Below are positions 26,930 to 43,043 of a DNA stretch of 64,000 nucleotides, one piece after another. The translations under genes and the position numbers were made by a program. How positions within the stretch are numbered: position 1 is the first letter of the stretch; every line of letters starts with the position of its first letter. The DNA comes from Corallococcus sp. EGB (GTDB taxonomy: Bacteria > Myxococcota > Myxococcia > Myxococcales > Myxococcaceae): positions 5,729,356-5,793,355 of the forward strand of contig NZ_CP079946.1 in NCBI RefSeq assembly GCF_019968905.1, read 5' to 3'. The notes under the pieces were generated by a model, which was given only the letters and a program-made list of their open reading frames with translations, had not been told where the DNA came from and did no database searches.

Positions 26930-28666
26930 CTAGCAGTCCACCGGGCCTTTCAGGCTCGTAACGGTGGCTTCGATTTCTTCACACCCCCCCAGGGTTTTCG
27001 CCCCGTGGGCCGCCAGCTTGATGCCCAGCACGTCCCCCACCACCACGTCCGACATGGAGCGCACCACCACGCCGTCCCGCTGGCGGAACGTCACCGCGTA
27101 CCCGCGCGACATCACCTTCAGGGGGCTCAGGGCGTCCAGGCGGCCGCCCAGCCGGCCGAAGTGCGTCTGCGCGGACGACAGCATGCCCCGCTGGAGTTCC
27201 AGGAGCCGTGCCTGCGCCTGGGCCACCTTCGCCCGCTCGGCCGCCACGCGCGCCGTGGGCGTGGCCCGCTCCAGCCCCAGCCGCGCGTCCGCCAGCGCGC
27301 CCCGCCTCCGGGACACGCCCGCGCGCGCCGCCTCCGACAGGCGCATGGCCAGCTTCAACAGGTGCGCCCGCTGCTCCGACAGCCGCGTCTGGGGCCGCGC
27401 CCGCTGCAGCCGCTCCTGGAGCGCGCGCAGCGTCTCCCGGTGCTCGCGCGTCCGGGGGCGCATCACGCGCATCATCGCCTCCACCTGTTCGGACAGGTGC
27501 AGGCGCTGGTGGTTCACCTCACGGCGGGGGTCGGGCAGCCGTGAGCGCAGCTGGCCCTGGCGCTCGCGCAGCTCCAGCACCCGGCGCTCCATGGCCCGGC
27601 GCAGGCGGCCGGACTGCGTGGCCAGCGTCAGCTCCAGGTCCGCCAGCACCGGCGCCAGCCGCTCCGCCGCCGCGCTGGGCGTGGGCGCGCGCAGGTCCGC
27701 GACGAAGTCCGAGATGGTGAAGTCGATTTCGTGGCCGATGGCGGACACCACCGGCACGGGCGAGGCGAAGATGGCGCGCGCCACCCGCTCCTCGTTGAAC
27801 GTCCAGAGGTCCTCCACGGAGCCTCCGCCGCGCGTCACGACGATGACGTCCACGTCCGTACGCGCGAGCCGCTCGATGGCCCGCGCCACGTCCTCCGCGG
27901 AGCCCTCCCCCTGCACGCGCGCGTCCGCCAGGAGCACGCCCAGCCGGGGGTTGCGCGAGTGCAGCACACGCAGGAAGTCCTGGAGCGCCGCGCCGGTGCG
28001 GCTCGTCACGACGCCGATGCGCCGGGGCAGGAACGGCACGGGCCGGGGCGGCCGCACGCGCCGGTCGCCGATGAGCCCCTCCGCCGCCAGCCGCTGCTTG
28101 AGCTGCTCGAACGCGAGCGCCAGCGCGCCCTCGCCCACCGGCTCCAGCCGGGACACGATGAGGCTGTAGCGGCCCTGCGGCTCGTACAGGTCCACGCTGC
28201 CCTCGGCCAGCACCTCCATGCCGTCGCGCAGCGCGAAGCGGATCCGCGACGCCATGGACGCCCACACCTTCGCGTCGATGGAGGCGTCCGAGTCCTTGAG
28301 CGTGAAGTACCAGTGGCCGCGCGCGTTGGCGCCGCGGAAGCTGGACACCTCGCCGCGCACCAGCACGCGCGGGAAGCGCGACTCCACCGTCTGCTTGATC
28401 TGCCGGGTGAGCTCGCCTACCGACAGCACCGTGCGCTCCGCGCGAGGCGGCGGAGTGACGGTGGCCGGAGGCGCCGGCGTGCTGGCGGCCGGGGGCTCCG
28501 CGGCGATCTCCGCCACCGGCGCGGACGGCGGCGACCTGGGCGGCTTGCTCGCGGCGGCGGCCTTCGGCGGGGCCGGACGCAGGGGAGGCAGGAGCGACGT
28601 GCCGAACAGATCGCCCTGCCCCGGCTCGTCGGCCGGGGGTGATTCGCCCCCCTTGCGCTTCTTCAT
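26930..28666 (-). CDS. xseA: Exodeoxyribonuclease VII large subunit. Start at MKKRKGG; Pro-rich N-terminal linker, then OB-fold
   Basis: OB-fold GEVSSFRGANARGHWYFTLKD; catalytic-region motifs GVVTSRTGAALQDF...VVTRGGGSVEDLW; the track's N-terminal 177 aa are an artefact. Confidence 0.85.
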   Translation of the reverse strand: MKKRKGGESPPADEPGQGDLFGTSLLPPLRPAPPKAAAASKPPRSPPSAPVAEIAAEPPAASTPAPPATVTPPPRAERTVLSVGELTRQIKQTVESRFPRVLVRGEVSSFRGANARGHWYFTLKDSDASIDAKVWASMASRIRFALRDGMEVLAEGSVDLYEPQGRYSLIVSRLEPVGEGALALAFEQLKQRLAAEGLIGDRRVRPPRPVPFLPRRIGVVTSRTGAALQDFLRVLHSRNPRLGVLLADARVQGEGSAEDVARAIERLARTDVDVIVVTRGGGSVEDLWTFNEERVARAIFASPVPVVSAIGHEIDFTISDFVADLRAPTPSAAAERLAPVLADLELTLATQSGRLRRAMERRVLELRERQGQLRSRLPDPRREVNHQRLHLSEQVEAMMRVMRPRTREHRETLRALQERLQRARPQTRLSEQRAHLLKLAMRLSEAARAGVSRRRGALADARLGLERATPTARVAAERAKVAQAQARLLELQRGMLSSAQTHFGRLGGRLDALSPLKVMSRGYAVTFRQRDGVVVRSMSDVVVGDVLGIKLAAHGAKTLGGCEEIEATVTSLKGPVDC

Positions 28667-30414
28667 CGCGACAGCTTCTCGATCCAGCCCTGGGCCTTGC
28701 CGTGCAGCTCGTCGTCCGGCGGCGTCATCGCGACGACGTCGCGGAACTTGGGCAGCGCGTCCTCGGGGCTGGAGTCCTTGATGGAGTAGGCCTGCATGTA
28801 CAGGTCCTTCGCCTTGCCCTTGAGGTCGTTGACGATGTTGGCGGCGCCCGCGTGGGCGGGGTCCGCCTGGAGCGCGCGGCGGGCGAACTCCATGGCGCGC
28901 GACCACTGGCCGGCGGCCTTCGCGCCCGCGGCGCTCTTGTAATAGATGGTCGCCGCGCGGGTGCCCGCGTTGCGCGCCATCTTGCTGCCGCGCCCGTCCG
29001 TGATGTCCTTGTCCAGCGCGAGCAGCCGGGTGAGGCCCTTGGCGTCCAGGTCCTCCAGCTTCTTGTAGAGGTTGCCGAACTCCGTCACCTGCCCCATCAG
29101 CTGCTTGCACTGCGCCGTCTTGGCCGAGCACGCGTTGAGCATGGCCGCCGCGCCGGTGAGGTCGCCGTCGCGGAAGCGGTCCACGGCGGGCTCCCACGGC
29201 TTGGGCGCCGCGGCCACGCGCACGGGGTCCGGACGGGTCATGTCGGCGATGACGCGCGCGGCATCGTCATTGACCAGCTTGCCGTCGCGGTGCTCTGGGA
29301 AGGTCGCCAGCACGTCGTCGGTGATGGCCTTGGCCTTCTGCACGTTCTCCAGCTGGCGGGTGTCCAGCAGCCCCTTGGCCTCCTTCGTGCGCTTGTCGGC
29401 GGCTTCCGCCAGGTTCCTGCGCGCCGCCTTGAGCTGCTCGTAGAGCTGGGTGTCGCTGCTCACCTTCTCGATGGACGCCTTCGCGTTGGCGAGCTCGCCC
29501 TTGGCCAGCGCCGCCTGGGCCGTGGCCAGGTGGCCCTGGTTGGGGATCTCCCGCTCCGCTGCCTTCAGGTAGTCCGCCACGCCGGGGTAGTCCGGCGCCT
29601 GCGCGTTGAGCTCCTCCAGCTTCGCCTTGGCTTGCTGCCACTGGCCCTCGCGCACCAGGTTCTTGGCTTCCTGGAAGAGGCCGCCCAGCTGCTCGCGGTA
29701 CTTGCGCTGCTCGGCCTCGATGCGGCCCTGCTCCTCCTGCTGGTGACGCATGCGCGAGCGCGCGACGCCCAGACCCGCGAAGAGCAGCACCAGCACGGCG
29801 GCGCCCGCGAGCTTGATCCGCATGCGCTTGCGCTGCATCTCCGGCGTGAGCTCCGCGGCCGCGGCGGCGCGCGACGTCTGCGGGCGCGCGCGGCCCTCCC
29901 GGGCGGGGCGCGCGGGCACGGCCACGGCACCGCGAGCACCCGAGGCGGACGGGCGGGGCCGGGGGCTGGAGGGCGCCTGCACCTTGGCGGTGCTGTTGGC
30001 GGTGTCCTCGTAGCGCAGCTCCGAGTCGCCCAGCGTGATGACGTCGCCGTTGGCGAGCAGCGTCTCCTCGGAGATGGGCTCGCCGTTGACGATGGTGCCG
30101 TTGCCGGACCCCATGTCACTGACCATCCAGCCGGCGGACTCCTTGCGCAGCGTCACGTGCTTGCGGGAGACGGACGTGTCCTGGATGCAGATGGGGTTGT
30201 CGGTGGAGCGGCCCACCGTGTACTCGAGCTCGGAGAGCGCGAACTCCTCGCCCTCCATGGGGCCGGCGACGACGACGAGCTTCGCCGGGCGAACCGCGGC
30301 CGCGGAGGCACCGGTCGACCGGCGGACCGGCGCGCGCTGTCCGGTCCCGGAGGAGGGCGTACCTGACGTAGGCCGTCGGCGGGCGGGGGGAGGTGCGTTC
30401 GACATGGAGGTCAC
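28663..30414 (-). CDS. FHA-domain, single-pass inner-membrane protein with a periplasmic TPR/coiled-coil C-terminal region; part of the Tad-like cluster (resembles Kil-system FHA proteins)
   Basis: FHA motif VGRSTDNPICIQDTSVSRKHVTL...SGNGTIVNGEPI; TM helix LAGAAVLVLLFAGLGVA; stop overlaps the xseA start (ATGA). Confidence 0.75.
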   Translation of the reverse strand: MTSMSNAPPPARRRPTSGTPSSGTGQRAPVRRSTGASAAAVRPAKLVVVAGPMEGEEFALSELEYTVGRSTDNPICIQDTSVSRKHVTLRKESAGWMVSDMGSGNGTIVNGEPISEETLLANGDVITLGDSELRYEDTANSTAKVQAPSSPRPRPSASGARGAVAVPARPAREGRARPQTSRAAAAAELTPEMQRKRMRIKLAGAAVLVLLFAGLGVARSRMRHQQEEQGRIEAEQRKYREQLGGLFQEAKNLVREGQWQQAKAKLEELNAQAPDYPGVADYLKAAEREIPNQGHLATAQAALAKGELANAKASIEKVSSDTQLYEQLKAARRNLAEAADKRTKEAKGLLDTRQLENVQKAKAITDDVLATFPEHRDGKLVNDDAARVIADMTRPDPVRVAAAPKPWEPAVDRFRDGDLTGAAAMLNACSAKTAQCKQLMGQVTEFGNLYKKLEDLDAKGLTRLLALDKDITDGRGSKMARNAGTRAATIYYKSAAGAKAAGQWSRAMEFARRALQADPAHAGAANIVNDLKGKAKDLYMQAYSIKDSSPEDALPKFRDVVAMTPPDDELHGKAQGWIEKLSR

Positions 30415-30441: not shown

Positions 30442-33426
30442 TTAAAGCTCGTGCTCATAGGCTTTTTCCAGCGCGAGATTGTGGCAGCGATGCTCGGCCG
30501 TAGGGAAGCGTCTCCGCACGTCTTCCAAGGTGGCGACCGCGTCCCGTCGGCTTCGGAACTGAACCGCCCGCTGGAACTGCATCATCAGCTGGCTGCAGCG
30601 GTGGTCCAGCTCCATTGAAATCTGGGCGATCCGCTCCCGGACGTCGTCGTACAGCTCCGGCTTCTCGTCGAGCGCTTCCAGGGTGATCCACGCGGCCCGG
30701 TAGTCCCGCCACGACTTGAACAGGTTCTCCGCGCCCACATCCTTGAGCTCGTAGAAGCGGGCCCCGGACTTCGCCAGCTCCCGGGCGGAAGCGACCAACT
30801 GGTCGGGTGGCAGCTCGGGCACCGGGATGATCTCCAGGCGCAGGTTCCAGATGCGCCAGGGGTCATGGCCGGGCGGGTTGAGGGCGTTGTCGAAGAGGAG
30901 CTGGTTGTTGGCGTTGCGGCGCAGGAGGCTGGGGGGGAGGACGTGCTCCAGTTCGCGCTCGGCGGTCTGCGCCGTGTCTGGAGGCACCCAGCCCAGGGAC
31001 ACGCCGTTGAGGGACAGGTTGACCTCGTCCCGGGCGATGTCGCTGGCCTGATAGTGCAGCACCGCCACCGCGCGGGTCGGGGACACGAAGCGGAAGTCGA
31101 AGAGCTTGTCGTCGGCGTGGACCCAGCGCACGCCCTGGCCCAGGCCGAAGGAGTCCGGTACCGGATCCATGCCCAGCGTGAAGGGCTCGCGTCCCGGGAG
31201 GCGGATGGCGGTCGGCATCGCGAGCGCCGCGAGCAGCGTCACCCCCGCCAGCACCACCACCGCCGACACCGACACGAAGGCGATGCGCTTGGGCAGTGAC
31301 TGGCGCTGCCAGAAGAGCTGGAACTGGCCAGCGAGCGACTTGCCCAACTGACGCCGCTTGCGCGCCTTGTCCGCGGCGGACGAGGGCTCGACCTTCGCGA
31401 CGACCGTCACCGGGCCGTTGGGCACGAGCTGGATGGACGGGTCCTCCCGGTCGGGCGGGAGCGGCTGGGTGCCTTCGCCCTCCCCGTCCGCGGAGGGCGT
31501 GGGTGCCAGCAAGGGGGCCGCGCCCGGCGGCGGGCCGGGGTCCAGCGCCGGAGGAGGCACGGCGTGCTGCCGGCGGCCCACCTGCGTCACCGGCTCCGGC
31601 GGAGGCGGCGGGACGGGAGCGAGCCGGGCCTGCGGTGCCTCCGGAACCGCCGCGGCGGCGATGGGCGGTTCCTGGCCCGCGAAGGTCCCCGAGGCACGGG
31701 TCTCCTCGGGAGCCGCATCGACGTCATGGTCCTGGCCGACGAAGGTCGCGGGCTCGCGGGAGTCCGACGGGGGTGCGGCCGGTGCCGCGCTCGCGACACG
31801 CACCGGCGGGGACACGAGCGGGCTGACCGGGGTGATGGGCCGGAGGTCGAGGACCGTGCGCTCCTCGGGCTCCTCCATCGTCGGAGGGGGCAGCGCAAAC
31901 GCGTCGTCCCGTGGCGGCGGCGCGTCCACCGGAGGTGGCGCTTCCGGGGTCGCCTGAATCGCCATCAGCGTGCGCTCTTCAGGCTCCTCCAGGGCCGGCG
32001 CGGAGAGCGCGGACACGGCCTCGTGCGATGGCACTCCCCCCGGAGGCGGCGCTGCCGGGGTCGCCTGAATCGCCATCAGCGTGCGCTCCTCCGGCTCGTC
32101 CATCACCGCGATGGGCAGCTCGGGGGCCGGCACGGAGACGGGCCCAGGCGAATCCACGGTGGGAATCGCCATCAGCGTGCGTTCCTCCGGTTCCTCCGGC
32201 ACCACGGGCGCCAGGTCATTGGAGGGCGGCGTGACGGGAGGGCGCGCCGGGGGTGGCGGAGCCATGAGCCCCGGCGGCGTCATCAACGGAAGGCCGGACC
32301 CGGAGGAGGCCCCAACGCCTGGTGCCGTGGACGCACGCGAGGCGCCGCGATCCGGCGAAGGCCGGTTCGGTCCCGGCGTGCCAACACCGGGCGGGCTCGA
32401 GACACCATTCCGCTTCGCGGAAACAGGCTCCGTCGAGGCAGGAGCGCCCACCGCCGGAAGCTCCAGCGCCGTGATGTGGGCGGGCTCCACGGCAAGCGTG
32501 GCCGGCGCGTCCAACACGGGAGGGCGGCCGGCCCCCGAGCCATTGATCGCTGGCAGTCCCGGCCCGGAGGCCCTGACAGGGGTGGATGCTCCCGGAGCCT
32601 TGTTCACCGGCGAGGCGCTGCCCACGACAGGTCCCGCGGGCGCCTTGGCCGGCGAACCCGCGGGAGGAGCGGCAGCCCCCAACACCGGTGGCCCCGCGGG
32701 AGTTCTGGACGGCGCGCTCGCGGAAGGCCCCGAGGACGCCAACACCGGAGGCGAGCCGGGGACCTTGCCCGCGGCAGACGCTCCGGACGCGGAGCCCCCC
32801 AGCACCGGAGGGGGCCTGACCGGCGCGGTCCCCAACGCGGGAGCCCGCAGCACCGGAGGACTCCTGCCCGGAGTGGCAGCCCCCAGGACCGGGGGCACCG
32901 GTGGAGCCTTGACTGGCGTGGGGCCCCCCACCGCGGGCAGATCTGGAGCAGAGGGGCGCTTCGGTGGAGTCACCGCCGCCGGCATCACGGGCGTGGGCAC
33001 TGCCTTCCCTGAGGGCACGGTGGCGGCGGGACGCGGCGGAGAAGCGGGCCTCGCCATGGCTGGCATCGACTGCTGGTAGCTCGTGGGCGCCGCTTCGATC
33101 TCCGCGAGCGACGCCTGCTCCACGCCCTGCGGCGACACCTTCGCGTGCGGCGGCGCGAGCACCCGCCGGATGGGCCGGGTGACGTCGTCGTCCCCGTCCG
33201 GCGGCATCCACACGAAGGTGAACTCCACCGGCCCCACGGTGATGCGGTCCCCGTCGCGCAGCTGCTTCTCACCGCTCAGCAGCTGGCCGTTGAGGTGCGT
33301 GCCGTTCGCGCTGCCTACGTCCTCGGCGAAATAGCGCCCATCCCTCGCGGTGATGCGCGCATGACGACGGGAGACACCGTGGTCATGCAGCACCAGGTCG
33401 TTCTCCGAGGTCCGGCCGATCTTCAC
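30442..33426 (-). CDS. Large FHA-domain membrane protein (994 aa): N-terminal FHA, about 600 aa Pro/Ala-rich disordered region with four EEPEERTLMAI-type repeats, one TM helix, and a roughly 270 aa periplasmic C-terminal domain
   Basis: FHA motif IGRTSENDLVLHDHGVSRRHARI...SANGTHLNG; TM helix IAFVSVSAVVVLAGVTLLAALA. Confidence 0.75.
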   Translation of the reverse strand: MKIGRTSENDLVLHDHGVSRRHARITARDGRYFAEDVGSANGTHLNGQLLSGEKQLRDGDRITVGPVEFTFVWMPPDGDDDVTRPIRRVLAPPHAKVSPQGVEQASLAEIEAAPTSYQQSMPAMARPASPPRPAATVPSGKAVPTPVMPAAVTPPKRPSAPDLPAVGGPTPVKAPPVPPVLGAATPGRSPPVLRAPALGTAPVRPPPVLGGSASGASAAGKVPGSPPVLASSGPSASAPSRTPAGPPVLGAAAPPAGSPAKAPAGPVVGSASPVNKAPGASTPVRASGPGLPAINGSGAGRPPVLDAPATLAVEPAHITALELPAVGAPASTEPVSAKRNGVSSPPGVGTPGPNRPSPDRGASRASTAPGVGASSGSGLPLMTPPGLMAPPPPARPPVTPPSNDLAPVVPEEPEERTLMAIPTVDSPGPVSVPAPELPIAVMDEPEERTLMAIQATPAAPPPGGVPSHEAVSALSAPALEEPEERTLMAIQATPEAPPPVDAPPPRDDAFALPPPTMEEPEERTVLDLRPITPVSPLVSPPVRVASAAPAAPPSDSREPATFVGQDHDVDAAPEETRASGTFAGQEPPIAAAAVPEAPQARLAPVPPPPPEPVTQVGRRQHAVPPPALDPGPPPGAAPLLAPTPSADGEGEGTQPLPPDREDPSIQLVPNGPVTVVAKVEPSSAADKARKRRQLGKSLAGQFQLFWQRQSLPKRIAFVSVSAVVVLAGVTLLAALAMPTAIRLPGREPFTLGMDPVPDSFGLGQGVRWVHADDKLFDFRFVSPTRAVAVLHYQASDIARDEVNLSLNGVSLGWVPPDTAQTAERELEHVLPPSLLRRNANNQLLFDNALNPPGHDPWRIWNLRLEIIPVPELPPDQLVASARELAKSGARFYELKDVGAENLFKSWRDYRAAWITLEALDEKPELYDDVRERIAQISMELDHRCSQLMMQFQRAVQFRSRRDAVATLEDVRRRFPTAEHRCHNLALEKAYEHEL
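31880..32215 (-). repeat. Imperfect tandem repeats of about 100 bp inside the large FHA gene, encoding four (D/E)EPEERT(L/V)(M/L)AI peptide repeats
   Basis: DNA motif gaatcgccatcagcgtgcgctc(c/t)tc(a/c)ggctc(c/g)tcc recurs three times with 95-105 bp spacing; approximate coordinates. Confidence 0.6.
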
Positions 33427-33499
33427 TTCGGCCTGCTCGAAGGCGAGCTCCCGTCCGACCTGGAGCCCCTGGGTGATGGTGAGCAGGATGGGCAGAGGA

Positions 33500-34387
33500 C
33501 TAGCCCCCGACGTTGCCGAACATGAACTGGAACACGATGGGCCCGAAGAGCACCATGAACACCGTCGGGAAGATGCAGGCGATCAGCGGGAACAGCATCT
33601 TCACCGGGGCCTCGCCGGCCAGCTTCTCCGCGCGCTGCGTGCGGTCGATGCGCATCTGCGTGGACTGGATGCGCAGCACCTTGCCCAGGCTCGTGCCCAT
33701 CTTGTCCGCCTGGATCAGCGCCGTGACGAACGTCGTCAGCGACGGCAGGTCCACGCGCATGATCATGCTCTTCAAGGCCTCTTCGCGCGTCTTGCCCATC
33801 TTGAGCTGCTTGAGCACCAGCTGCAGCTCCTCGCGCAGCGGACCCTGGCGGCCCTTCTCCACCACCTTCGCCAGCGCGCCCGTGAAGTCCATGCCCGCTT
33901 CCACCGACAGCGTCAGCAGGTCCAGGTTGTACGGGAGCGCGCGGCTGATGGCCAGGTGACGGCGCTTCACCTGATCGTTCAACCAGATGAGCGGATAGAA
34001 CAGGCCCAGGAGCATCACCAGCAGCGACCACGCCAGGTTCGCGCCAATGCCGTTGACGACGAACAGGCCGGCGAGCAACGCGAAGAACGCGCTCACCTCC
34101 TGCAACGCCATGATGTCCTCGGGCTTGTACTGCGACGGCTCGCCCGCCTTGATCAGCTTGCGGCGCGTCTTGGACTCGTAGCTCGGCCACATGAAGCGCC
34201 GGTTCATCGCGCCCAGCTTGCGGACGGCGACGGAGCCCGCGCCCTTCATGCCGCCAGCGGACTCGTCCCGCACCTCCGTGAGGAAGCGCTCCAGGACGTT
34301 GGTGTACAGGCCGATGCCCAGGAACGCCACCGCGCCCGCGGTCAGCAGTACCGAGCCGCCCATCAGCAGAGATGTCAGGACTTCCAC
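33500..34387 (-). CDS. Tad/type II secretion system F-family inner-membrane platform protein (TadC-like)
   Basis: T2SSF-domain polytopic membrane protein; pairs with the following TadB-like gene. Confidence 0.8.
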   Translation of the reverse strand: MEVLTSLLMGGSVLLTAGAVAFLGIGLYTNVLERFLTEVRDESAGGMKGAGSVAVRKLGAMNRRFMWPSYESKTRRKLIKAGEPSQYKPEDIMALQEVSAFFALLAGLFVVNGIGANLAWSLLVMLLGLFYPLIWLNDQVKRRHLAISRALPYNLDLLTLSVEAGMDFTGALAKVVEKGRQGPLREELQLVLKQLKMGKTREEALKSMIMRVDLPSLTTFVTALIQADKMGTSLGKVLRIQSTQMRIDRTQRAEKLAGEAPVKMLFPLIACIFPTVFMVLFGPIVFQFMFGNVGG

Positions 34388-34400
34388 GGTACGCCTCGCT

Positions 34401-35246
34401 TCAGATGTCGATGTTGACGATGCGGCGGATGATGAGGATGCCCATGATCTCCATGATGGCGATCAGGGTCACCAGGATGTAGCCGAAGATGTGGTTCATC
34501 ATCGGCTCCATCAGGTCCGGACGCATGTAGTTGAGCACCATGCCCAGCACCGCCGGCATGGCCGCGACGATCCACCCCTGAAGCTTGCCCTGGGACGTCA
34601 GCGCGTCGATCTTGCCTTCCAGACGGAAGCGCTCGCGGATCACCGTGGAGATGGTCTCGAACATCTCCGCCATGTTGCCGCCCAGCTGGCGCGCGATGTT
34701 GGTGGACACCACCACCAGCTCCAGGTCGTCGCTGCCCACGCGGCGGCCCATGTTGATGAGCGCCTCCTCCAGCGGCACGCCCAGCTTCACTTCCTTCACG
34801 AAGAGGCCGAACTCCTGGGACAGGGGCGGCATCGCCTCGCGCGCCACGTGCTCGATGGCCTGCGGGAACGTGAGGCCGGCCTTGAACGCGTTGGCCATGG
34901 CCTGCAGCGCGTCCACCAGCTGCACGTTGAACTTCTTGATGCGGCGCTTGCGGTAGTGCTTCACGAGCAGCATCGGCAGGAAGAAGCCGAAGATGGTCGC
35001 CAGCACCGCCAGGATGGGGTTGAAGACGATGTAGCTGAGGATGCCCAGGAGGCACATGCAGGCGATGTTGAGGATCAACATCTGCCGCGCGTCGATGAAG
35101 AGGAACATGTCGCTCAAGTCGTTCATCGACTTGGCGACGTACCGCTCCTGGTACTGCTCATACGCCTTCGACAGGACGCTGAAGATCACCAGGCTGAAGA
35201 AGAAGACCGAGCCGGTGACGAGAAGGAGGACGATACCTGCGAGCAT
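34401..35246 (-). CDS. Tad/type II secretion system F-family inner-membrane platform protein (TadB-like)
   Basis: T2SSF-domain; ...AFKAGLTFPQAIEHVAREAMPPLSQEF... is typical of TadB. Confidence 0.8.
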   Translation of the reverse strand: MLAGIVLLLVTGSVFFFSLVIFSVLSKAYEQYQERYVAKSMNDLSDMFLFIDARQMLILNIACMCLLGILSYIVFNPILAVLATIFGFFLPMLLVKHYRKRRIKKFNVQLVDALQAMANAFKAGLTFPQAIEHVAREAMPPLSQEFGLFVKEVKLGVPLEEALINMGRRVGSDDLELVVVSTNIARQLGGNMAEMFETISTVIRERFRLEGKIDALTSQGKLQGWIVAAMPAVLGMVLNYMRPDLMEPMMNHIFGYILVTLIAIMEIMGILIIRRIVNIDI

Positions 35247-35322: not shown

Positions 35323-36138
35323 CTACGGAGTGCCGGCCGAGGCCTTCTCGCCGCCGCCGCCCCGGATGACCGTGATGATCTCCCGGCGCTTCTGCTCCAG
35401 CACGCGGGTGCGCTCACCGGAGAGCAGCGTGCTGATGGTGGCGCGGCCACGCTCCTCGATGAGGTCCACGTCGTCCTCGTTGCGCAGGGACAGCGTCAGG
35501 TTGCCGAGCTCCGCCGCCAGCACGAGGATCTCCGCCTCTTCCGGCAGCACCATCAGCGAGACGTTGCTGTACTCGCGCTGGTTCTCCGGGATGAGGTTGA
35601 TGTTCGTGGTACCGGTGATCTTGCCCGTGGCCACGACGATGATGTTCTGCAGCAGCGTCACCGCGACGCTCTCGTCCGTCTGCGGATCGCGGAACGTGCC
35701 GATGATGTCCACGTGGTCGTTCGGGCGGATCCACCCGCCCACCGCGGTGGTCTGCTTCGCCTCGATGGTGATGGCGCGCGCCTTCTTCTGCACCTTCGTG
35801 GACAGGCGCTCGGCGGCCTTCGTGGTCTCGAACTGGCTCCAGAGGATGGGGTCGCCGGCCTGCAGCGCCACCAGCACCTTCTGGTTCACGATGTAGTTGG
35901 CGGAGTCCGGCTTCACCACCGACGAGGTGACGAACTGCTCCGGCACGGAGCGCTGGGAGATCATCTCATACGTGATGACCGAGCCCTCGGGCATGTCCTG
36001 CCCCGCCACCACCACGGGAACCAGGTTCCACCCGCGGCGCACATCGGCTTCCTTCTTCTTGATGGCCGAGTAGGCCACGATGCCCGCGAGCAAACCGAGC
36101 ACCAGTGCGACGACGAGTGGGGTCTTACCCTTCAACAT
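35323..36138 (-). CDS. cpaB: Flp pilus assembly protein CpaB/RcpC family (periplasmic, N-terminal TM anchor, SAF domain)
   Basis: N-terminal TM helix LVVALVLGLLAGIVAY, then the CpaB N- and C-terminal domains. Confidence 0.75.
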   Translation of the reverse strand: MLKGKTPLVVALVLGLLAGIVAYSAIKKKEADVRRGWNLVPVVVAGQDMPEGSVITYEMISQRSVPEQFVTSSVVKPDSANYIVNQKVLVALQAGDPILWSQFETTKAAERLSTKVQKKARAITIEAKQTTAVGGWIRPNDHVDIIGTFRDPQTDESVAVTLLQNIIVVATGKITGTTNINLIPENQREYSNVSLMVLPEEAEILVLAAELGNLTLSLRNEDDVDLIEERGRATISTLLSGERTRVLEQKRREIITVIRGGGGEKASAGTP

Positions 36139-36370: not shown

Positions 36371-36655
36371 TCAGGGGAACGGCAGGTTCAGCACGAAGTA
36401 GAACGAGTCGTAATAAATCTGGTACGCCTCGAGGAACAGGTCGATGACGTTGGACTGCTTGTCTTCGTTCCAGCGGATCTTCACCGTGGCGCCGATGACG
36501 AGCCCGACGATCAACACCCAGTTGATCATCGAGTACTCCACCATGGCCTGGCCACGGCGGGCCCGGCGCGGCGGCGACTTCCGGGGGCTGTTCACGGGGG
36601 GAGCGTGCACGATGCCCCCATTATCCAGCACCGGGGCCCTGGACGCATCGGTCAT
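36371..36655 (-). CDS. Candidate Flp/Fap-family type IVb prepilin: 37-aa basic leader, G/QAMVEY processing motif, hydrophobic helix. Could alternatively start at the internal Met as a 57-aa product
   Basis: ...RRARRGQAMVEYSMINWVLIVGLVIGATV... matches the Flp G-XXXX-EY motif followed by a hydrophobic helix; GC3 is clearly lower than in neighbouring genes (att, tat, aat, gaa codons); sits between the anti-sigma gene and cpaB. Confidence 0.55.
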   Translation of the reverse strand: MTDASRAPVLDNGGIVHAPPVNSPRKSPPRRARRGQAMVEYSMINWVLIVGLVIGATVKIRWNEDKQSNVIDLFLEAYQIYYDSFYFVLNLPFP

Positions 36656-36673: not shown

Positions 36674-38074
36674 CTACTGCGCGGGCTGGGCGGGGGCCGC
36701 CTTGGACGGAGCCGCGGGGGGCGTGGCCTGACGCAGGCGGCGCTGGGCCAGCTGGGCCGCGCTGGAGTCCGGGGCCTCGGAGATGATCTGCCCGCAGACG
36801 GCGGCGGCCTCCCGGGTCCGGCCCTGGACGGACTCGGACTCACAGAGGCGGGAGAGCAGCGCCAACCGCTCGCTGCCGTTGGCTCCAGCCGCGAGCGCGG
36901 CGCGCAGCAGCCGGGCCTCGCTGGCACGGTCGCCCCGCTCCGCGGCGGCCTGGGCCTGGGCGGACAGATCGCGCGCCGTCATCGCCTTGTCGGAGGCGGC
37001 CTTCCCCACGGGCACGGGCTTCGCGGTCGACGCCCGGGGGGACGCGGGCTCCGGGGGCGCGGCCCCGCCAATGGAGCCCGGGGTGCCGGGGGCCATGGTC
37101 ACGGACTGGGCCTGGGGCGCGGCGGCCGCAGGAGGCGGCGGCGACGCGGAAGCGCTCGCGCCCCCCTCGTCCGCGTCGTCCGCGGCGAGCCCCCGGCCAT
37201 AGGCCTTCGCGCCCAACCGCAGCGAGTCGTCCTTCGCGGCCAGCGCGGTGTCCGCGCCTGCCGCCGTCGCACGCCGCGGCGCGGGGACGACCTTTCCGGC
37301 CAGGTAGCCGTCGGACTTCTCTTCCTTCAGCGATGAAGCCATCTCCGCTGGCAGAGCCCCCGCGGCCGGTTCGAGCGGCGCGAACTCGTTGTCCGCGTCG
37401 CGGACGGCCTTGGCCACCTTCTTCTTCGGGGCGTCGTCGTACGAGCGGCGCCGCTCCAGGAGCGCGCCGCCGCTGCCCGCGTTCATCCAGTCCGACGGAC
37501 GGGCCGCGCCCTTGAGCTCCGCCTCCGCCTGATTCCGGTCGAACTTCTCATCCATCGGCGCGGGTGAGACGGCCGCCAGCGCATCCGCGGCGCCCTCGGA
37601 GGAAGCCTCCTTCACGGCAGTGGGGGCAGGCGCCATCGTCGCGGTCGGCTGGCGCTTGTCCCACTCCTCCGCCTTCGCCGCGACCGGAGCGGCCTTCTGC
37701 GACAGGTTCGGCTCCAGCTGGAGGTTCTGGCTGATGGTCAGCGAGAGGAGGCCGAAGGTGCTCACCATGGCCACGCCCACCGCAGGCAGCAGCCAGCGGC
37801 GCCAGCGCGAGGGCTTCGGCTCGGGCCCCGCGGCGGCGCGGCGCGCGGCCTGCTCCGCGTACGCGAGCAGCGACTCCAGGCCCGCGTCCGGCGCGGGTTC
37901 GGCCGACAGCTGCGCCATGGTGGTGCGCACGCCGCGGATGTCCGCCAGCGCCTTCGTGCAGCGCGCACAGCCCTGGACGTGCTGCTCCAGCACCTGGGCT
38001 TCCGACGCGGGCAGCTCGCCGTAGGCGAAGTCGAGGAGCCGGTCCTCGTGCGCATGGACATTCTGGGCACTCAT
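36674..38074 (-). CDS. Anti-sigma factor: N-terminal zinc-binding ZAS-like domain, TM helix, Ala/Pro-rich periplasmic region with C-terminal TPR
   Basis: HVQGCARCTKAL (HxxxCxxC) anti-sigma motif; TM helix WLLPAVGVAMVSTFGLLSLTI; start overlaps the ECF sigma stop. Confidence 0.7.
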   Translation of the reverse strand: MSAQNVHAHEDRLLDFAYGELPASEAQVLEQHVQGCARCTKALADIRGVRTTMAQLSAEPAPDAGLESLLAYAEQAARRAAAGPEPKPSRWRRWLLPAVGVAMVSTFGLLSLTISQNLQLEPNLSQKAAPVAAKAEEWDKRQPTATMAPAPTAVKEASSEGAADALAAVSPAPMDEKFDRNQAEAELKGAARPSDWMNAGSGGALLERRRSYDDAPKKKVAKAVRDADNEFAPLEPAAGALPAEMASSLKEEKSDGYLAGKVVPAPRRATAAGADTALAAKDDSLRLGAKAYGRGLAADDADEGGASASASPPPPAAAAPQAQSVTMAPGTPGSIGGAAPPEPASPRASTAKPVPVGKAASDKAMTARDLSAQAQAAAERGDRASEARLLRAALAAGANGSERLALLSRLCESESVQGRTREAAAVCGQIISEAPDSSAAQLAQRRLRQATPPAAPSKAAPAQPAQ

Positions 38075-38718
38075 CCCGCCACCGTCCTTCCATCCTCCGA
38101 CAGGTCGCCGTCCACGCCCAGCTCTCCCAGGCGGCGGCGCAGGCCCTCCAGCGCGTAGCGCATCCGGCTCTTCACCGTGTTCTCGGACACGCCCGTCACC
38201 TCGGCGATCTCCTTGAACGGGATGCCGCTGTACTCGCGCAGCACGAACACCTCGCGCTGTTCCTCCGGAAGGGCCCCGAGGGCCCGCTCCAACAGGGGCC
38301 GGAGCCGGGCGTTGTGCGCCCCGCGCTCCGGGCTGGCCCCGGCATCCGGCAGCCCCTCGCCCAGCGGACGTCCCTCGTCGCCGTCGGCACCCGCCGAGGG
38401 GGCTTCCAGGGACGTCGCCTGGCGGTAGCTCTCTTTGCGGGTGCTGTCCACGCAGAGGTTCCTCGCGATGGTGTACAGCCAGGTCGTGAACCGGGCCTTG
38501 GGCTCGTATTCCCGGGCGCTGCGGACGACCTTGAGCCAGGTCTCCTGCAGCACGTCCTCCGCCCGCGCCCGGTGCCCCACGAAGCGCAGGATGAAGTTGA
38601 ACACCGGCGCGCGGTGCTTGCGTACCAACGCTTCGAACGCGCGCGCGTCTCCCGCCTGGAAGGCGAGCATCAGCTGCTCGTCTGAGGTTTCGGGTGCCAA
38701 ACTTCCCCCAGTGCCCAT
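38071..38718 (-). CDS. ECF (sigma-70 family, RpoE-like) sigma factor. Start at MGTGGSLAPETSDEQLMLAFQAGD
   Basis: Region 2 (VFNFILRFVGHRARAEDVLQETWLKV) and region 4 (FKEIAEVTGVSENTVKSRMRYALEGLR) motifs. Confidence 0.8.
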   Translation of the reverse strand: MGTGGSLAPETSDEQLMLAFQAGDARAFEALVRKHRAPVFNFILRFVGHRARAEDVLQETWLKVVRSAREYEPKARFTTWLYTIARNLCVDSTRKESYRQATSLEAPSAGADGDEGRPLGEGLPDAGASPERGAHNARLRPLLERALGALPEEQREVFVLREYSGIPFKEIAEVTGVSENTVKSRMRYALEGLRRRLGELGVDGDLSEDGRTVAG

Positions 38719-38782
38719 GAAGCCACGGGTGCCATCCCCTTCACCGCCCACGGCCTGTAACGGACAGCCGCGCGCGAAAGGT

Positions 38783-39274
38783 CTATTCCGGCCGTGGCCG
38801 CCGGTAAGTGGCGAGAATGACAGGGACGGCAACCGCTGTCACCAGAAGTGCCTGCGCCAGCAGCACCGCCGGTAGCGGGCGCTGCACATGGACGTACAGC
38901 GAGCGGCCAAGAGCCAGCCCCAGCAGGACGCCCGTCAACGTGCGCACCGCGTTGGAACCGGAAGCGGGCCGGAAGCGTCCCACCGCCCAGTCCCCGAGCG
39001 CGGGCAGCGTGAGCGCCAGCACCACCGGCACGTCCCACTCCCACTGGAGCGGCGCCTTCAGCGCGAACAGCCCGACGAAGACGGCGGCGAGCACCGGGTA
39101 CGTGCCCAGGCACCGCGCGCACACGCGCGCGCCCGCGAGCAGGTACGTGCGGTTGTACTCATCCGCGTGATGATGGCTGAGCCAGAACACCGGCACCTCC
39201 TCCGGACGCGGAAACAGCGGGCCCGTGCTGCATGTCGCGCGAATCCCCTTCGGCCAGGAAGCACGCCGCGGCAT
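38783..39274 (-). CDS. DUF2085-like membrane protein (Cys-rich CxxC); start uncertain
   Basis: [10 protein letters not shown] motif plus three or four TM helices; the track ORF (to 39331) and even the MPRRASW start overlap the 3' end of the upstream ABC ATPase gene. Confidence 0.45.
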
Positions 39275-41232: not shown

Positions 41233-41236
<4 letters not shown>

Positions 41237-42225
41237 TTCTGGGCCAGCTCCTCCAGGAACTCCGCCTCCTGGATGAGCCCCTTGCGGATGAGCAGGCGGA
41301 TGAGGCTCGCGACCATGCGCGCGGGCTTCACCTTCTCCGTGTCCAGGCTGGCCTCCTCGCCGCGCGAGATGCGGTCGATGTCGTCCAGCACCGCCAGGTC
41401 CTCCTCGGAGAAGTCCGGCTTGGGCGTGAGGGCCACGGACGGCTTCACGCCCTGCGCGGCGCCGCCGAAGAGCACCACCGGCACGCGCGGCTTGCTCGGG
41501 TCCTCCGGCTCCGAGGGAGGCGGGGGTGGCGGCGGACGGGCCGCGGCGGGCGGGGGCGGAGGACGCGGGGCCTTGGGACGGGGCGTGGAGCCCAGGATGT
41601 CCTCGAGCACCTCCGCGCCGTCCGTGGAGGAGTCATGGGGCGGCGGCGGAGGCAGGTCCCAGTCCAGCGGCGGCGCGGGCGGGCGCGGCGGCGCGGGCGG
41701 GCGCGCGGCGGCCGGCGGGGGCGACGGCAGGATGTCCGGCGAATCGTCCTCGTCCATGTCCATGGGTTCAGCCTCCACGATGTCCAGCGGCTCGCCCCGG
41801 CCGCGCGAGAGCGCCTGCTCCAGGTCGTCCGACGCGGCGACGAACACCTTGAGCGGCTTGCGCAGCTGGAAGCGCAGCTCGTCCACCAGCATCAGGTTGC
41901 CCGGGTCCTCCACCGCGACGTGGATCTTCTCGCTGCGGCCGTCCTGCTCCGCGGCGAAGAGGAGCACCCGGTGCTCCGTCTGGAAGTCCATGGACACCAG
42001 CGACGACACCCCGTGCGGGATGTACTCGGGGAGCTTCACGAACGGCAGCTCGTGCTGCGCCGCCAGCGCCCGCGCGATGTCCTGGCCCGTGCACAGGCCC
42101 ATGGACACCAGCACCTCCCCCAGCTTGCGTCCCTGCCCGCGACGTCCGGAGGCCAGGGCCTGCTTCACCTGCTCGTCCGTCACCACTCCGGCCTGGACGA
42201 GGAGCTCACCAATCTTCTTGCGCAT
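41233..42225 (-). CDS. Standalone T2SSE_N/MshEN-domain protein (N-terminal domain of GspE/PilB ATPases, no ATPase domain) with a Pro-rich C-terminal half
   Basis: Two MshEN-type 24-residue motifs: [24 protein letters not shown] and [24 protein letters not shown] ([RK]LGxxLLxxGLLxxxxLxxALxxQ). Confidence 0.7.
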
Positions 42226-42234
42226 GGCCGGGGG

Positions 42235-42984
42235 CTACCGCTTGACCTTGGCGAGGTATTCCTCGCGAGAGAAAACGCCCTTCTCGATGAGCAGCTCCAC
42301 CATGGCCTTCAGCGCCGCGACCTCCTTGCGCTGGACCTCCTCCACGCTCTTGAGCAGCTCCGCGGGGCTTCCGGACGCCGCGCGGGGCGCCTCCTGCGGA
42401 GGCGCCTGACGGGGCGGCGGCGCGGCGGCGGGCTTGGGGGACATGGCCACCGCGGCGGCCGGGTCCAGGTCCTTGAGGTTCTTCACGACGGTGCGGCCCT
42501 GCGCGTCCACCACCTTGAAGTTGGTGTCCGCGTCCTCCAGCTCCGCCGTCTCCTCGTAGAGGCGCGCGAACGCCCGCGCCACGGAGGTGCGCCCCGCCAC
42601 GTTGGCCACGATGCGGCACTTGGACAGGGCCCGCAGCTCGTCCAGCACGCGCACGTTGAGCGGGTCCGACATGGCGACCACCAGCGTCTTGCCGTCGTCG
42701 CGCAGCTGCAGCGGCACGACAGAGAAGTCGCGGGCCGTCTGCGCCGGAATCTTGGCCTTCACGTGCGGCGGCACCATCTGCACGGAGTCCAGGTTCACCG
42801 CCGGCATGCCGAGCTGCTTCGACAGGGCGCGCACGAGGATGTCCTCGGAGACGAGGTTCATCCGGACGAGGATCTCGCCCAGCTTCCCGCCCCACTTGGC
42901 CTGCTCGGCGAGCGCCGCCTTGAGCTGGCTCTCCTGCAGGACGTTTGCCTTGATCAGCAGTTCTCCAAGCTTGATCTGTGCCAT
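42235..42984 (-). CDS. Standalone T2SSE_N/MshEN-domain protein. Start at MAQIKLGELLIKANVL
   Basis: Motifs KLGELLIKANVLQESQLKAALAEQ and KLGEILVRMNLVSEDILVRALSKQ (G10 replaced by N); no ATPase domain. Confidence 0.7.
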   Translation of the reverse strand: MAQIKLGELLIKANVLQESQLKAALAEQAKWGGKLGEILVRMNLVSEDILVRALSKQLGMPAVNLDSVQMVPPHVKAKIPAQTARDFSVVPLQLRDDGKTLVVAMSDPLNVRVLDELRALSKCRIVANVAGRTSVARAFARLYEETAELEDADTNFKVVDAQGRTVVKNLKDLDPAAAVAMSPKPAAAPPPRQAPPQEAPRAASGSPAELLKSVEEVQRKEVAALKAMVELLIEKGVFSREEYLAKVKR

Positions 42985-43043
42985 GTCGTGCGCGCCATAG
43001 TACCCGGTTTGAGCCGGGGCGCTTCCTTTCAACGCCTGGAAGC

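Follow-up and report, generated by a model that had tools for sequence, protein, structure and literature searches.

Conserved threonine-centred motif arrays in the cytoplasmic tether of a predicted Kil-system FHA protein from Corallococcus sp. EGB

In a 64,000-nucleotide stretch of Corallococcus sp. EGB DNA (contig NZ_CP079946.1, positions 5,729,356 to 5,793,355; hereafter "the window"), a minus-strand gene at 30442..33495 encodes an FHA protein whose very long disordered spacer carries four repeats of a threonine-centred motif, EERT. By conserved synteny and domain content the gene is the ortholog of MXAN_4649, which lies in Kil cluster II of Myxococcus xanthus, and its product is predicted to serve the Kil system, a Tad-like prey-killing apparatus, as a bitopic accessory protein of the inner membrane. 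The array shows the signature expected of a short linear motif under purifying selection at the peptide level. We read its threonines tentatively as putative phospho-acceptor docking sites for FHA domains, a reading that we hold to be possible and a little short of probable. The gene itself is already known: databases carry an annotation for it, and the Kil literature lists its M. xanthus ortholog; no description of the Thr-motif arrays was found in the literature searched. An earlier note, made from the bare sequence, had picked out the gene and taken the genus to be Myxococcus. The DNA is from Corallococcus, and the M. xanthus ortholog has no EERT. The features of the gene are as follows, with residues numbered throughout on a 1017-aa model of the protein.

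30442..33495, minus strand: whole gene, 1017 aa from a CTG codon (the annotated GTG start at 33426 gives 994 aa)
33205..33495, minus strand: cytoplasmic FHA domain, aa 1-97 (PF00498, 75.5 bits; PF16697, 71.4 bits)
33163..33198, minus strand: post-FHA motif DGDDDVT106RPIRR, the Thr motif with the broadest conservation in the family
31285..33204, minus strand: disordered Pro/Ala-rich cytoplasmic spacer, aa 98-737 (640 aa), from composition and AlphaFold2
32512..32895, minus strand: second array, six PPV(L/V) motifs, aa 201-328, spaced 12-56 aa apart
32128-32223, minus strand: EERT unit 1, Thr at aa 440
32017-32127, minus strand: EERT unit 2, Thr at aa 472
31903-32016, minus strand: EERT unit 3, Thr at aa 509
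31789-31902, minus strand: EERT unit 4, Thr at aa 547
31216..31284, minus strand: single transmembrane (TM) helix, aa 738-760, at the hydropathy maximum and the only strong hydrophobic segment
30823..31182, minus strand: periplasmic jelly-roll, a beta-sandwich resembling a carbohydrate-binding module (CBM), aa 772-891, with an AlphaFold2 predicted local distance difference test score (pLDDT) of ~80-95
30454..30807, minus strand: periplasmic TPR-like five-helix bundle, aa 897-1014, with two conserved HRC motifs

EERT begins at residues 437, 469, 506 and 544, within the peptides EEPEERTLMAI, DEPEERTLMAI, EEPEERTLMAI and EEPEERTVLDL, respectively. All four of the (D/E)EPEERT repeats claimed in the earlier note are therefore present, although the last ends in DL and not in AI. 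Shuffling of the spacer gives an expectation of 0.0056 EERT per protein against the four observed, and the motif matches found in the six frames of the window are these four only. At the DNA level, Tandem Repeats Finder (TRF) reports a period of 111 bp in 2.3 copies at 31855..32108 (78% matches, score 306), and the units delimited by the motif, which together span 31789..32223, measure 96, 111, 114 and 114 bp. A repeat of about 100 bp, as first proposed, is thus real, but its units are only 55-76% identical in pairwise comparison, with insertions and deletions: they are old and diverged in this gene, and appear not to be prone to slippage. Within the 33-nt cores, copies 1-3 are set apart by six synonymous changes, in four codons, and a single Glu/Asp change. 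A search of a 5.8-billion-protein collection with the 131-aa repeat segment returned one Corallococcus fragment, but it missed known family members and so has no bearing on the presence of the motif in other proteins.

Comparison with relatives points to selection on the peptide. In 32 units from 10 Corallococcus genomes, compared at the DNA level, each position of E-P-E-E-R-T has a single amino acid encoded by two or three different codons, and the positions lying 8-12 residues to either side of this core hold 5-10 amino acids each. Across 35 proteins of Corallococcus and Myxococcus, the fourth position is Thr in all 118 EER-x-x-phi-x-phi motifs and Ser in none; the residue at -1 to the motif Thr can be R, H or A. 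Beyond Corallococcus, Myxococcus fulvus, M. stipitatus, M. eversor and their relatives carry the motif as EERT(E/D)(V/L)x(L), set in unrelated flanks. Since the core is invariant with varied codons, the flanks are free to change, and those of the two genera are unrelated, recent duplication or gene conversion alone is disfavoured as the source of this conservation.

Selection on the core has gone together with turnover of the copies. There are 3-5 EERT in Corallococcus and 2-5 in one Myxococcus group. Adjacent units are identical in some species (P0005, P0020), and strains named C. coralloides differ in the number and spacing of their units, so duplication is continuing in the lineage, though it is not recent in this window. 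This bears out part of the proposal that the DNA repeats are a source of length variation, since species and strains do vary in copy number and spacing, but most of the Corallococcus length excess (~500 aa over typical members) lies outside the EERT array. Corallococcus proteins are 940-1124 aa long, compared with 483-613 aa in most other genera and 649-678 aa in the EERT-bearing Myxococcus, and spacers range about ten-fold in length within the family, from ~90 to 1003 aa.

The array sits in a protein whose layout is the one first proposed, confirmed by Pfam, hydropathy and AlphaFold2: an N-terminal FHA domain, a disordered Pro/Ala-rich spacer, one TM helix and a folded periplasmic part. The FHA match to PF00498 lies well above the gathering cut-off of 20.7 bits, and no other Pfam domain was matched in the 994-aa protein. 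AlphaFold2 models this domain as a beta-sandwich with pLDDT 70-95. The canonical residues for binding phosphothreonine (pThr) are kept (G27-R28, S42-R-R-H45 and N64-G65) and are invariant or nearly so in the family alignment; GR, SxxH and NG are retained by both FHA domains of the window. The spacer is 21-23% Pro and 13-18% Ala, and in the full-length model residues 101-705 stay below 50 in pLDDT and form no secondary structure. Ahead of the TM helix comes a basic juxtamembrane helix that is conserved, SAAxRARxRR (aa 705-731); A707, A711, R712 and R715 are invariant in the family alignment, and AlphaFold2 places helices near the membrane at 707-717, 721-731 and 734-758. Following the positive-inside rule, the Arg/Lys cluster before the TM helix puts the FHA domain and the spacer in the cytoplasm and the C-terminal domain (C-domain) in the periplasm. 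O-glycosylation of Thr in the Pro-rich region was considered and rejected, as this topology makes the spacer cytoplasmic.

For the C-terminal 302 residues, AlphaFold2 with 99 homologs gives a confident model (pLDDT 89.5), in which the basic juxtamembrane helix and the TM helix are followed by a beta-sandwich of eight strands and a bundle of five helices. In Foldseek the sandwich matches BcsB carbohydrate-binding domains, CBM6/35/36 and Cry domain III, with E values of ~1e-4 to 1e-2. No Pfam or NCBIfam model covers the C-domain, and a PDB sequence search with it gave chance-level matches only. The periplasmic bundle also contains two invariant HRC motifs on the minus strand, DHRC967 (30595..30606) and EHRC1004-H (30481..30492), which could form a disulfide or a metal site.

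The assignment to the Kil system comes from the locus. The window has the gene order kilB-kilG-kilH-gene-FHA/TM/TPR-xseA, and so does each of the 46 loci from Myxococcaceae and Archangiaceae, M. xanthus included (the count is of species-level loci having enough flank). The M. xanthus counterparts run from MXAN_4652 to MXAN_4648 and belong to Kil cluster II, which contributes to a Tad-like apparatus needed for killing prey on contact (PMC8460266). In that work MXAN_4649 is annotated "PrgH-EprH 4.1E-10; FHA", and both it and MXAN_4648 are unnamed FHA proteins outside the set of deleted genes (PMC8460266). No deletion or characterisation of MXAN_4649 was found in the literature searched, and the many FHA proteins of the kil clusters are only said to "suggest a signalling cascade" (PMC8460266, PMC12428579); to later papers and reviews they are still no more than signalling candidates. 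The system is rich in such proteins: KilF, KilD, MXAN_3104, MXAN_4648 and MXAN_4649. The neighbouring genes of the cluster in the window, with the names of the first three taken from PMC8460266, are the following.

33500-34387, minus strand: kilH (Pfam T2SSF, TadB/C-type; synteny with M. xanthus locus L034)
34401-35246, minus strand: kilG (Pfam T2SSF, TadB/C-type; synteny with M. xanthus locus L034)
35323-36138, minus strand: kilB/cpaB (Pfam RcpC and SAF; synteny with M. xanthus locus L034)
28663..30414, minus strand: another bitopic FHA protein, with a TM helix and a TPR-like part, orthologous to MXAN_4648 (Pfam matches to FHA and YscD_cpl, and a weak one to TPR; position kept in 40+ loci)

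From these elements a model of the protein at work can be proposed. A Hanks-type Ser/Thr kinase encoded elsewhere would phosphorylate the motif threonines, and each phospho-motif would then dock one FHA domain. The candidate readers are the protein's own FHA domain, that of the neighbouring FHA/TM/TPR protein, the FHA-bearing KilF ATPase, and KilD. In this way the tether would become a multivalent scaffold, switched by phosphorylation, that collects Kil components at the membrane. The predicted chain would run from the periplasmic module (CBM-like sandwich and TPR-like bundle) through the TM helix and the disordered tether to the pThr-binding FHA end. The analysis itself establishes what the gene is and where it lies, the domain layout, the disorder, the make-up of the repeats, the selection on the motif and the turnover of copies; phosphorylation, FHA docking and the scaffold role are what we infer.

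The proposal that the repeat threonines might serve as docking or phosphorylation sites for the FHA domains has gained several points in its favour: the Thr is invariant, the core is selected, the pThr-binding residues of the FHA domains are canonical and the context is PknA-like. FHA domains are specific for pThr and discriminate it from phosphoserine, and the strict use of Thr, never Ser, therefore favours the FHA reading. Intact pThr pockets in both FHA domains of the window, together with the over-representation of FHA proteins in Kil, favour it also. The motif pattern, acidic upstream and hydrophobic downstream, resembles the Thr sites of mycobacterial PknA (PMC7164672), although the hydrophobic residue preferred there at +3 fits only loosely with the +2/+4 hydrophobics of the EERT motif. 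There is also a myxobacterial precedent for multivalent FHA binding in the six GltG-FHA sites predicted on GltI of M. xanthus (PMC11761067).

Several observations nevertheless weigh against FHA docking at phosphorylated motifs. No gene for a Ser/Thr kinase or a PP2C phosphatase occurs within ~10 kb on either side. In the full-length, unphosphorylated AlphaFold2 model the motifs are disordered and undocked on the FHA domain, which counts weakly since the phosphate is absent from the model. The pT+3 position varies (A, D, L or G), though it is the usual position of FHA specificity. There are no EERT copies in M. xanthus, Pyxidicoccus, Citreicoccus, Archangium, Stigmatella or Hyalangium; as the M. 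xanthus, Pyxidicoccus and Archangium orthologs do without them, the array is evidently not essential for basic Kil function. Lastly, among the FHA residues examined for co-variation with the presence of EERT, only the one after N-G-T separates the two groups, and there phylogeny confounds the comparison.

Conservation of a peptide does not in itself call for a phosphate, and the motifs might instead be phosphorylation-independent short linear motifs for another partner, an explanation that we think unlikely while giving it real weight. That partner could, for example, be a TPR domain, in KilD or in the FHA/TPR protein encoded next door, or else the KilF ATPase; a beta-sheet edge could also take up the motif by strand addition. 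The alternating hydrophobics of T-x-phi-x-phi would make the contact. Strong peptide-level selection would suit such binding, as would the hydrophobics at +2 (M/L/V) and +4 (I/L) from the Thr, which are typical of beta-strands, and the lack of a kinase gene within ~10 kb. What it leaves hard to explain, unless the hydroxyl and the methyl both have a role, is a Thr in 118 of 118 motifs that is never Ser, Val or Ala. Nor do the motifs have any strand or helix propensity in AlphaFold2, and the enrichment of the Kil system in FHA domains with intact pThr pockets also goes against it. Alternatively, the threonines could be phosphorylated and yet act without FHA docking, by altering how charged or compact the tether is, by silencing the protein's own FHA domain as a pseudo-ligand within the same molecule (as in GarA/OdhI), or as a turnover mark. 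The same sequence features that suggest FHA docking would agree with this, and T106 lies in a motif ~10 residues past the FHA domain, a position that suggests a contact in cis or head-to-tail in trans; in addition, NCBIfam places the FHA domain nearest to the FhaB/FipA and OdhI-type domains, below their cut-offs. The presence of multiple copies whose flanking residues are conserved speaks for a reader that recognises them and not for an effect of bulk charge, and we regard this second alternative as distinctly improbable.

Most directly contradicted by the codon data is a third alternative, in which the disordered spacer evolves fast and matters for its length alone, as a tether or ruler, with the repeats arising simply as side products of duplication. 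The conservation of the motif would then be apparent only, left by recent duplication or gene conversion. The roughly ten-fold range of spacer lengths (about 90 to 1003 aa), the identical adjacent units of P0005 and P0020, and an M. xanthus ortholog without the array are all as this would predict. The units of the present gene, however, are 55-76% identical while the differences within their cores are synonymous, and across the 32 Corallococcus units the six core positions are invariant in the protein with 2-3 codons each. Moreover, the motif survives between genera in unrelated flanks, and gene conversion would have homogenised the flanks too. We therefore consider a length-only role very unlikely. 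A more ambitious form of the favoured FHA-docking reading is that the protein is a transmembrane link between prey contact and Kil assembly: the periplasmic module would sense contact with the envelope or its perturbation, and a kinase would then phosphorylate the Thr array. The multivalent pThr-FHA network so formed, in which each tether offers 4-6 sites and the KilF motor is one of five FHA proteins, would drive condensate-like clustering of the Tad apparatus at the contact site. We put this forward as a speculation with little likelihood of being right; if it were true, the lineage-specific number of motifs would tune valency and hence the threshold for clustering.

The EERT repeats are one of several Thr-centred elements in the family. 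T106 is invariant in a 41-sequence alignment, and D-x-T-R-P-I-R-R occurs in nearly all orthologs from Myxococcaceae and Archangiaceae, with 2-3 tandem copies in the M. xanthus group. Distant members have other Thr-centred repeats: GETRLIEV (three or four copies), (S/Q)TRIV, and ATLAEMPAV (two or three copies). In the Myxococcus dinghuensis ortholog (L019:2770-6909), which is 1380 aa long with a spacer of 1003 aa, a Ser occupies the T106 position, and there are extra acidic-Thr repeats, DGPEESTAMLAP in three copies and EEDDQTLPPMS in four; this spacer is an independent and even larger expansion. What all these elements share is a Thr that has acidic or polar surroundings and hydrophobics after it, present in one to several copies within the cytoplasmic tether.

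The second array of the gene, which lies on the N-terminal side of the EERT units, is made of PPV(L/V) motifs, of which six are observed against 0.43 expected, with a maximum of three in 300 shuffles. TRF did not detect this array at the DNA level. Its motifs are spaced 15-20 aa apart in many other Corallococcus orthologs, and in several of these PPVL begins each EERT unit (APPPVLPxPELDEPEERT...).

More widely, phmmer with the C-domain finds 391 representatives (50%-identity clusters) at E<=1e-3. The domain is C-terminal in nearly all of them, and most members are 450-650 aa long and have an N-terminal FHA domain. Orthologs from Myxococcus, Pyxidicoccus, Archangium and Stigmatella are 50-62% identical. 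A distant subfamily (L053-L080), with ~40% identity in the C-domain, comes mostly from Archangium-like metagenome-assembled genomes and lies outside the kilBGH context, with two copies in some genomes; next to one of its members, L063:5269-7848, the following gene encodes a TadE-like pseudopilin.

The length of the protein depends on its start codon. The minus-strand open reading frame (ORF) at 30442..33426 is real, with a GTG start and 994 aa, and its product is a 100% match to the NCBI entry "FHA domain-containing protein [Corallococcus sp. EGB]". This annotated start, however, removes the first strands of the FHA fold. The sequence in frame upstream (33427..33495) is open and encodes LPILLTITQGLQVGRELAFEQAEV ahead of KIGR, which supplies the absent strands. 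Most likely, then, the gene is 30442..33495 and encodes 1017 aa, with the conserved CTG at 33495, 69 nt upstream of the annotated GTG, as its start codon. This choice rests on the open upstream frame, on the conservation of NTG, on an improved Yop-YscD_cpl match and on the AlphaFold2 model. The codon aligned to 33495-33493 is an NTG in every one of the 46 loci: CTG in 37, GTG in eight (the M. xanthus group) and TTG in one. It lies 2-16 nt past the kilH stop, with a G-rich run ahead of it in most loci, and in 41 of the 46 there is no canonical in-frame start upstream of it. With the 23 added residues the match to Yop-YscD_cpl (PF16697) grows from profile positions 20-91 (61 bits) to 2-91 (71 bits), and residues 3-9 form a strand of the FHA sandwich in the AlphaFold2 model. 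At least four different N-termini are found among public annotations of the orthologs, and most of them truncate the FHA domain. Restoring the first FHA strands by the corrected start matters for any cloning or tagging of the protein. As for the spacer, the possibility that its frame is a non-coding artefact of high GC content was rejected, since it stays open across 46 species despite large changes in length.

The MXAN_4648-type neighbour, with xseA next downstream, begins with a Ser/Thr/Arg-rich tail and a canonical FHA domain, which a short disordered linker joins to its one TM helix; the TPR-like domain of ~360 aa that follows should be periplasmic. The MXAN_4649-type and MXAN_4648-type bitopic FHA proteins have the same topology and are always side by side, and they may act as a pair. 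Just upstream of kilB, a 94-aa ORF (36371..36655, minus strand) contains RRGQAMVEYSMINWVLIVGLVIGA, which resembles the leader and cleavage motif of Flp/TadE-type prepilins (G/xxxxEY) and is followed by a hydrophobic helix; this ORF may be a pilin-like gene of the Kil cluster. Directly beyond the kil genes are a zf-HC2 anti-sigma factor and an extracytoplasmic function (ECF) sigma factor, and further on two MshEN-domain proteins (regions 36674..38838 and 41233..43032, minus strand). MshEN is the domain that binds cyclic di-GMP in the ATPases of type II secretion systems and type IV pili. These anti-sigma, ECF sigma and MshEN genes are possible regulators of the cluster.

The analysis yields concrete candidate sites for mutation: in this Corallococcus protein the repeat threonines T440, T472, T509 and T547, and in nearly all orthologs T106. 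Another outcome is a candidate bitopic scaffold that would couple a periplasmic module to cytoplasmic FHA/pThr chemistry, which bears on how the Kil apparatus is assembled at prey contact and is relevant both to myxobacterial predation and to bacterial Ser/Thr signalling.

Of the known proteins, MXAN_4649 is the direct counterpart: it lies between kilH and MXAN_4648, has the FHA domain, the TM helix and the C-terminal domain, and shares the post-FHA D-x-T-R-P-I-R-R. The ortholog in the M. xanthus AM003 locus L034 is 56% identical over the C-domain. The M. xanthus protein, however, has only 484 aa and a 110-aa spacer, and carries two tandem DATRPIR copies in place of EERT. SctD/YscD/PrgH proteins resemble the Kil protein in having a cytoplasmic domain of the FHA fold (Yop-YscD_cpl match of 71 bits), one TM helix and a periplasmic domain, and HHpred linked MXAN_4649 to PrgH (PMC8460266). 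Yet SctD has a short linker and an FHA fold without the pThr pocket that the Kil protein retains, and the periplasmic part of the latter is a jelly-roll with a TPR-like bundle, lacking the ring-building alpha/beta motifs; its score against TIGR02500 (SctD) is 17.6 bits, the cut-off being 86. GltG is likewise a bitopic myxobacterial protein: it starts with an FHA domain, for which several binding sites are predicted on the scaffold GltI (PMC11761067), and it has a TM helix and long stretches of disorder. It differs in its second FHA domain and in a TonB-C-like periplasmic domain of another fold than the Kil C-domain, and NF033760 (GltG) gives 53.2 bits against a cut-off of 650. The multivalent sites of GltG are on its partner, whereas those proposed for the Kil protein are on the FHA protein itself.

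The ETTS motif of GarA/OdhI and the SDT repeats of MDC1, which are read by the FHA domain of NBS1, are acidic, Thr-centred motifs in disordered segments that are phosphorylated and then bound by FHA domains, and in MDC1 they form a tandem array. The likeness to the Kil protein is in the acidic Thr-centred motifs within disorder, with phosphorylation only predicted for the latter; there is no sequence relationship (the OdhI NCBIfam model gives 47 bits, cut-off 200), and the Kil protein is set in a membrane-anchored Tad context. In the type VI secretion system (T6SS), Fha1/TagH has an N-terminal FHA domain and a long disordered Pro-rich region with a Thr that is phosphorylated by a Hanks kinase. 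In the PpkA-Fha1-PppA threonine phosphorylation pathway of Pseudomonas aeruginosa, this phosphorylation triggers the assembly of a contact-dependent killing machine. Fha1/TagH differs in being soluble, without a TM helix or periplasmic domain, and in having one main site and not an array; TIGR03354 (TagH/Fha1) matches the FHA region only, at 58.9 bits against a cut-off of 120.25, and the neighbours of the Kil gene are Tad-like, with no T6SS genes nearby. An analogy with the T6SS Fha1 pathway is also drawn in PMC8460266, and it is this scaffold, Fha1/TagH, that the Kil protein, judged by analogy, works most like.

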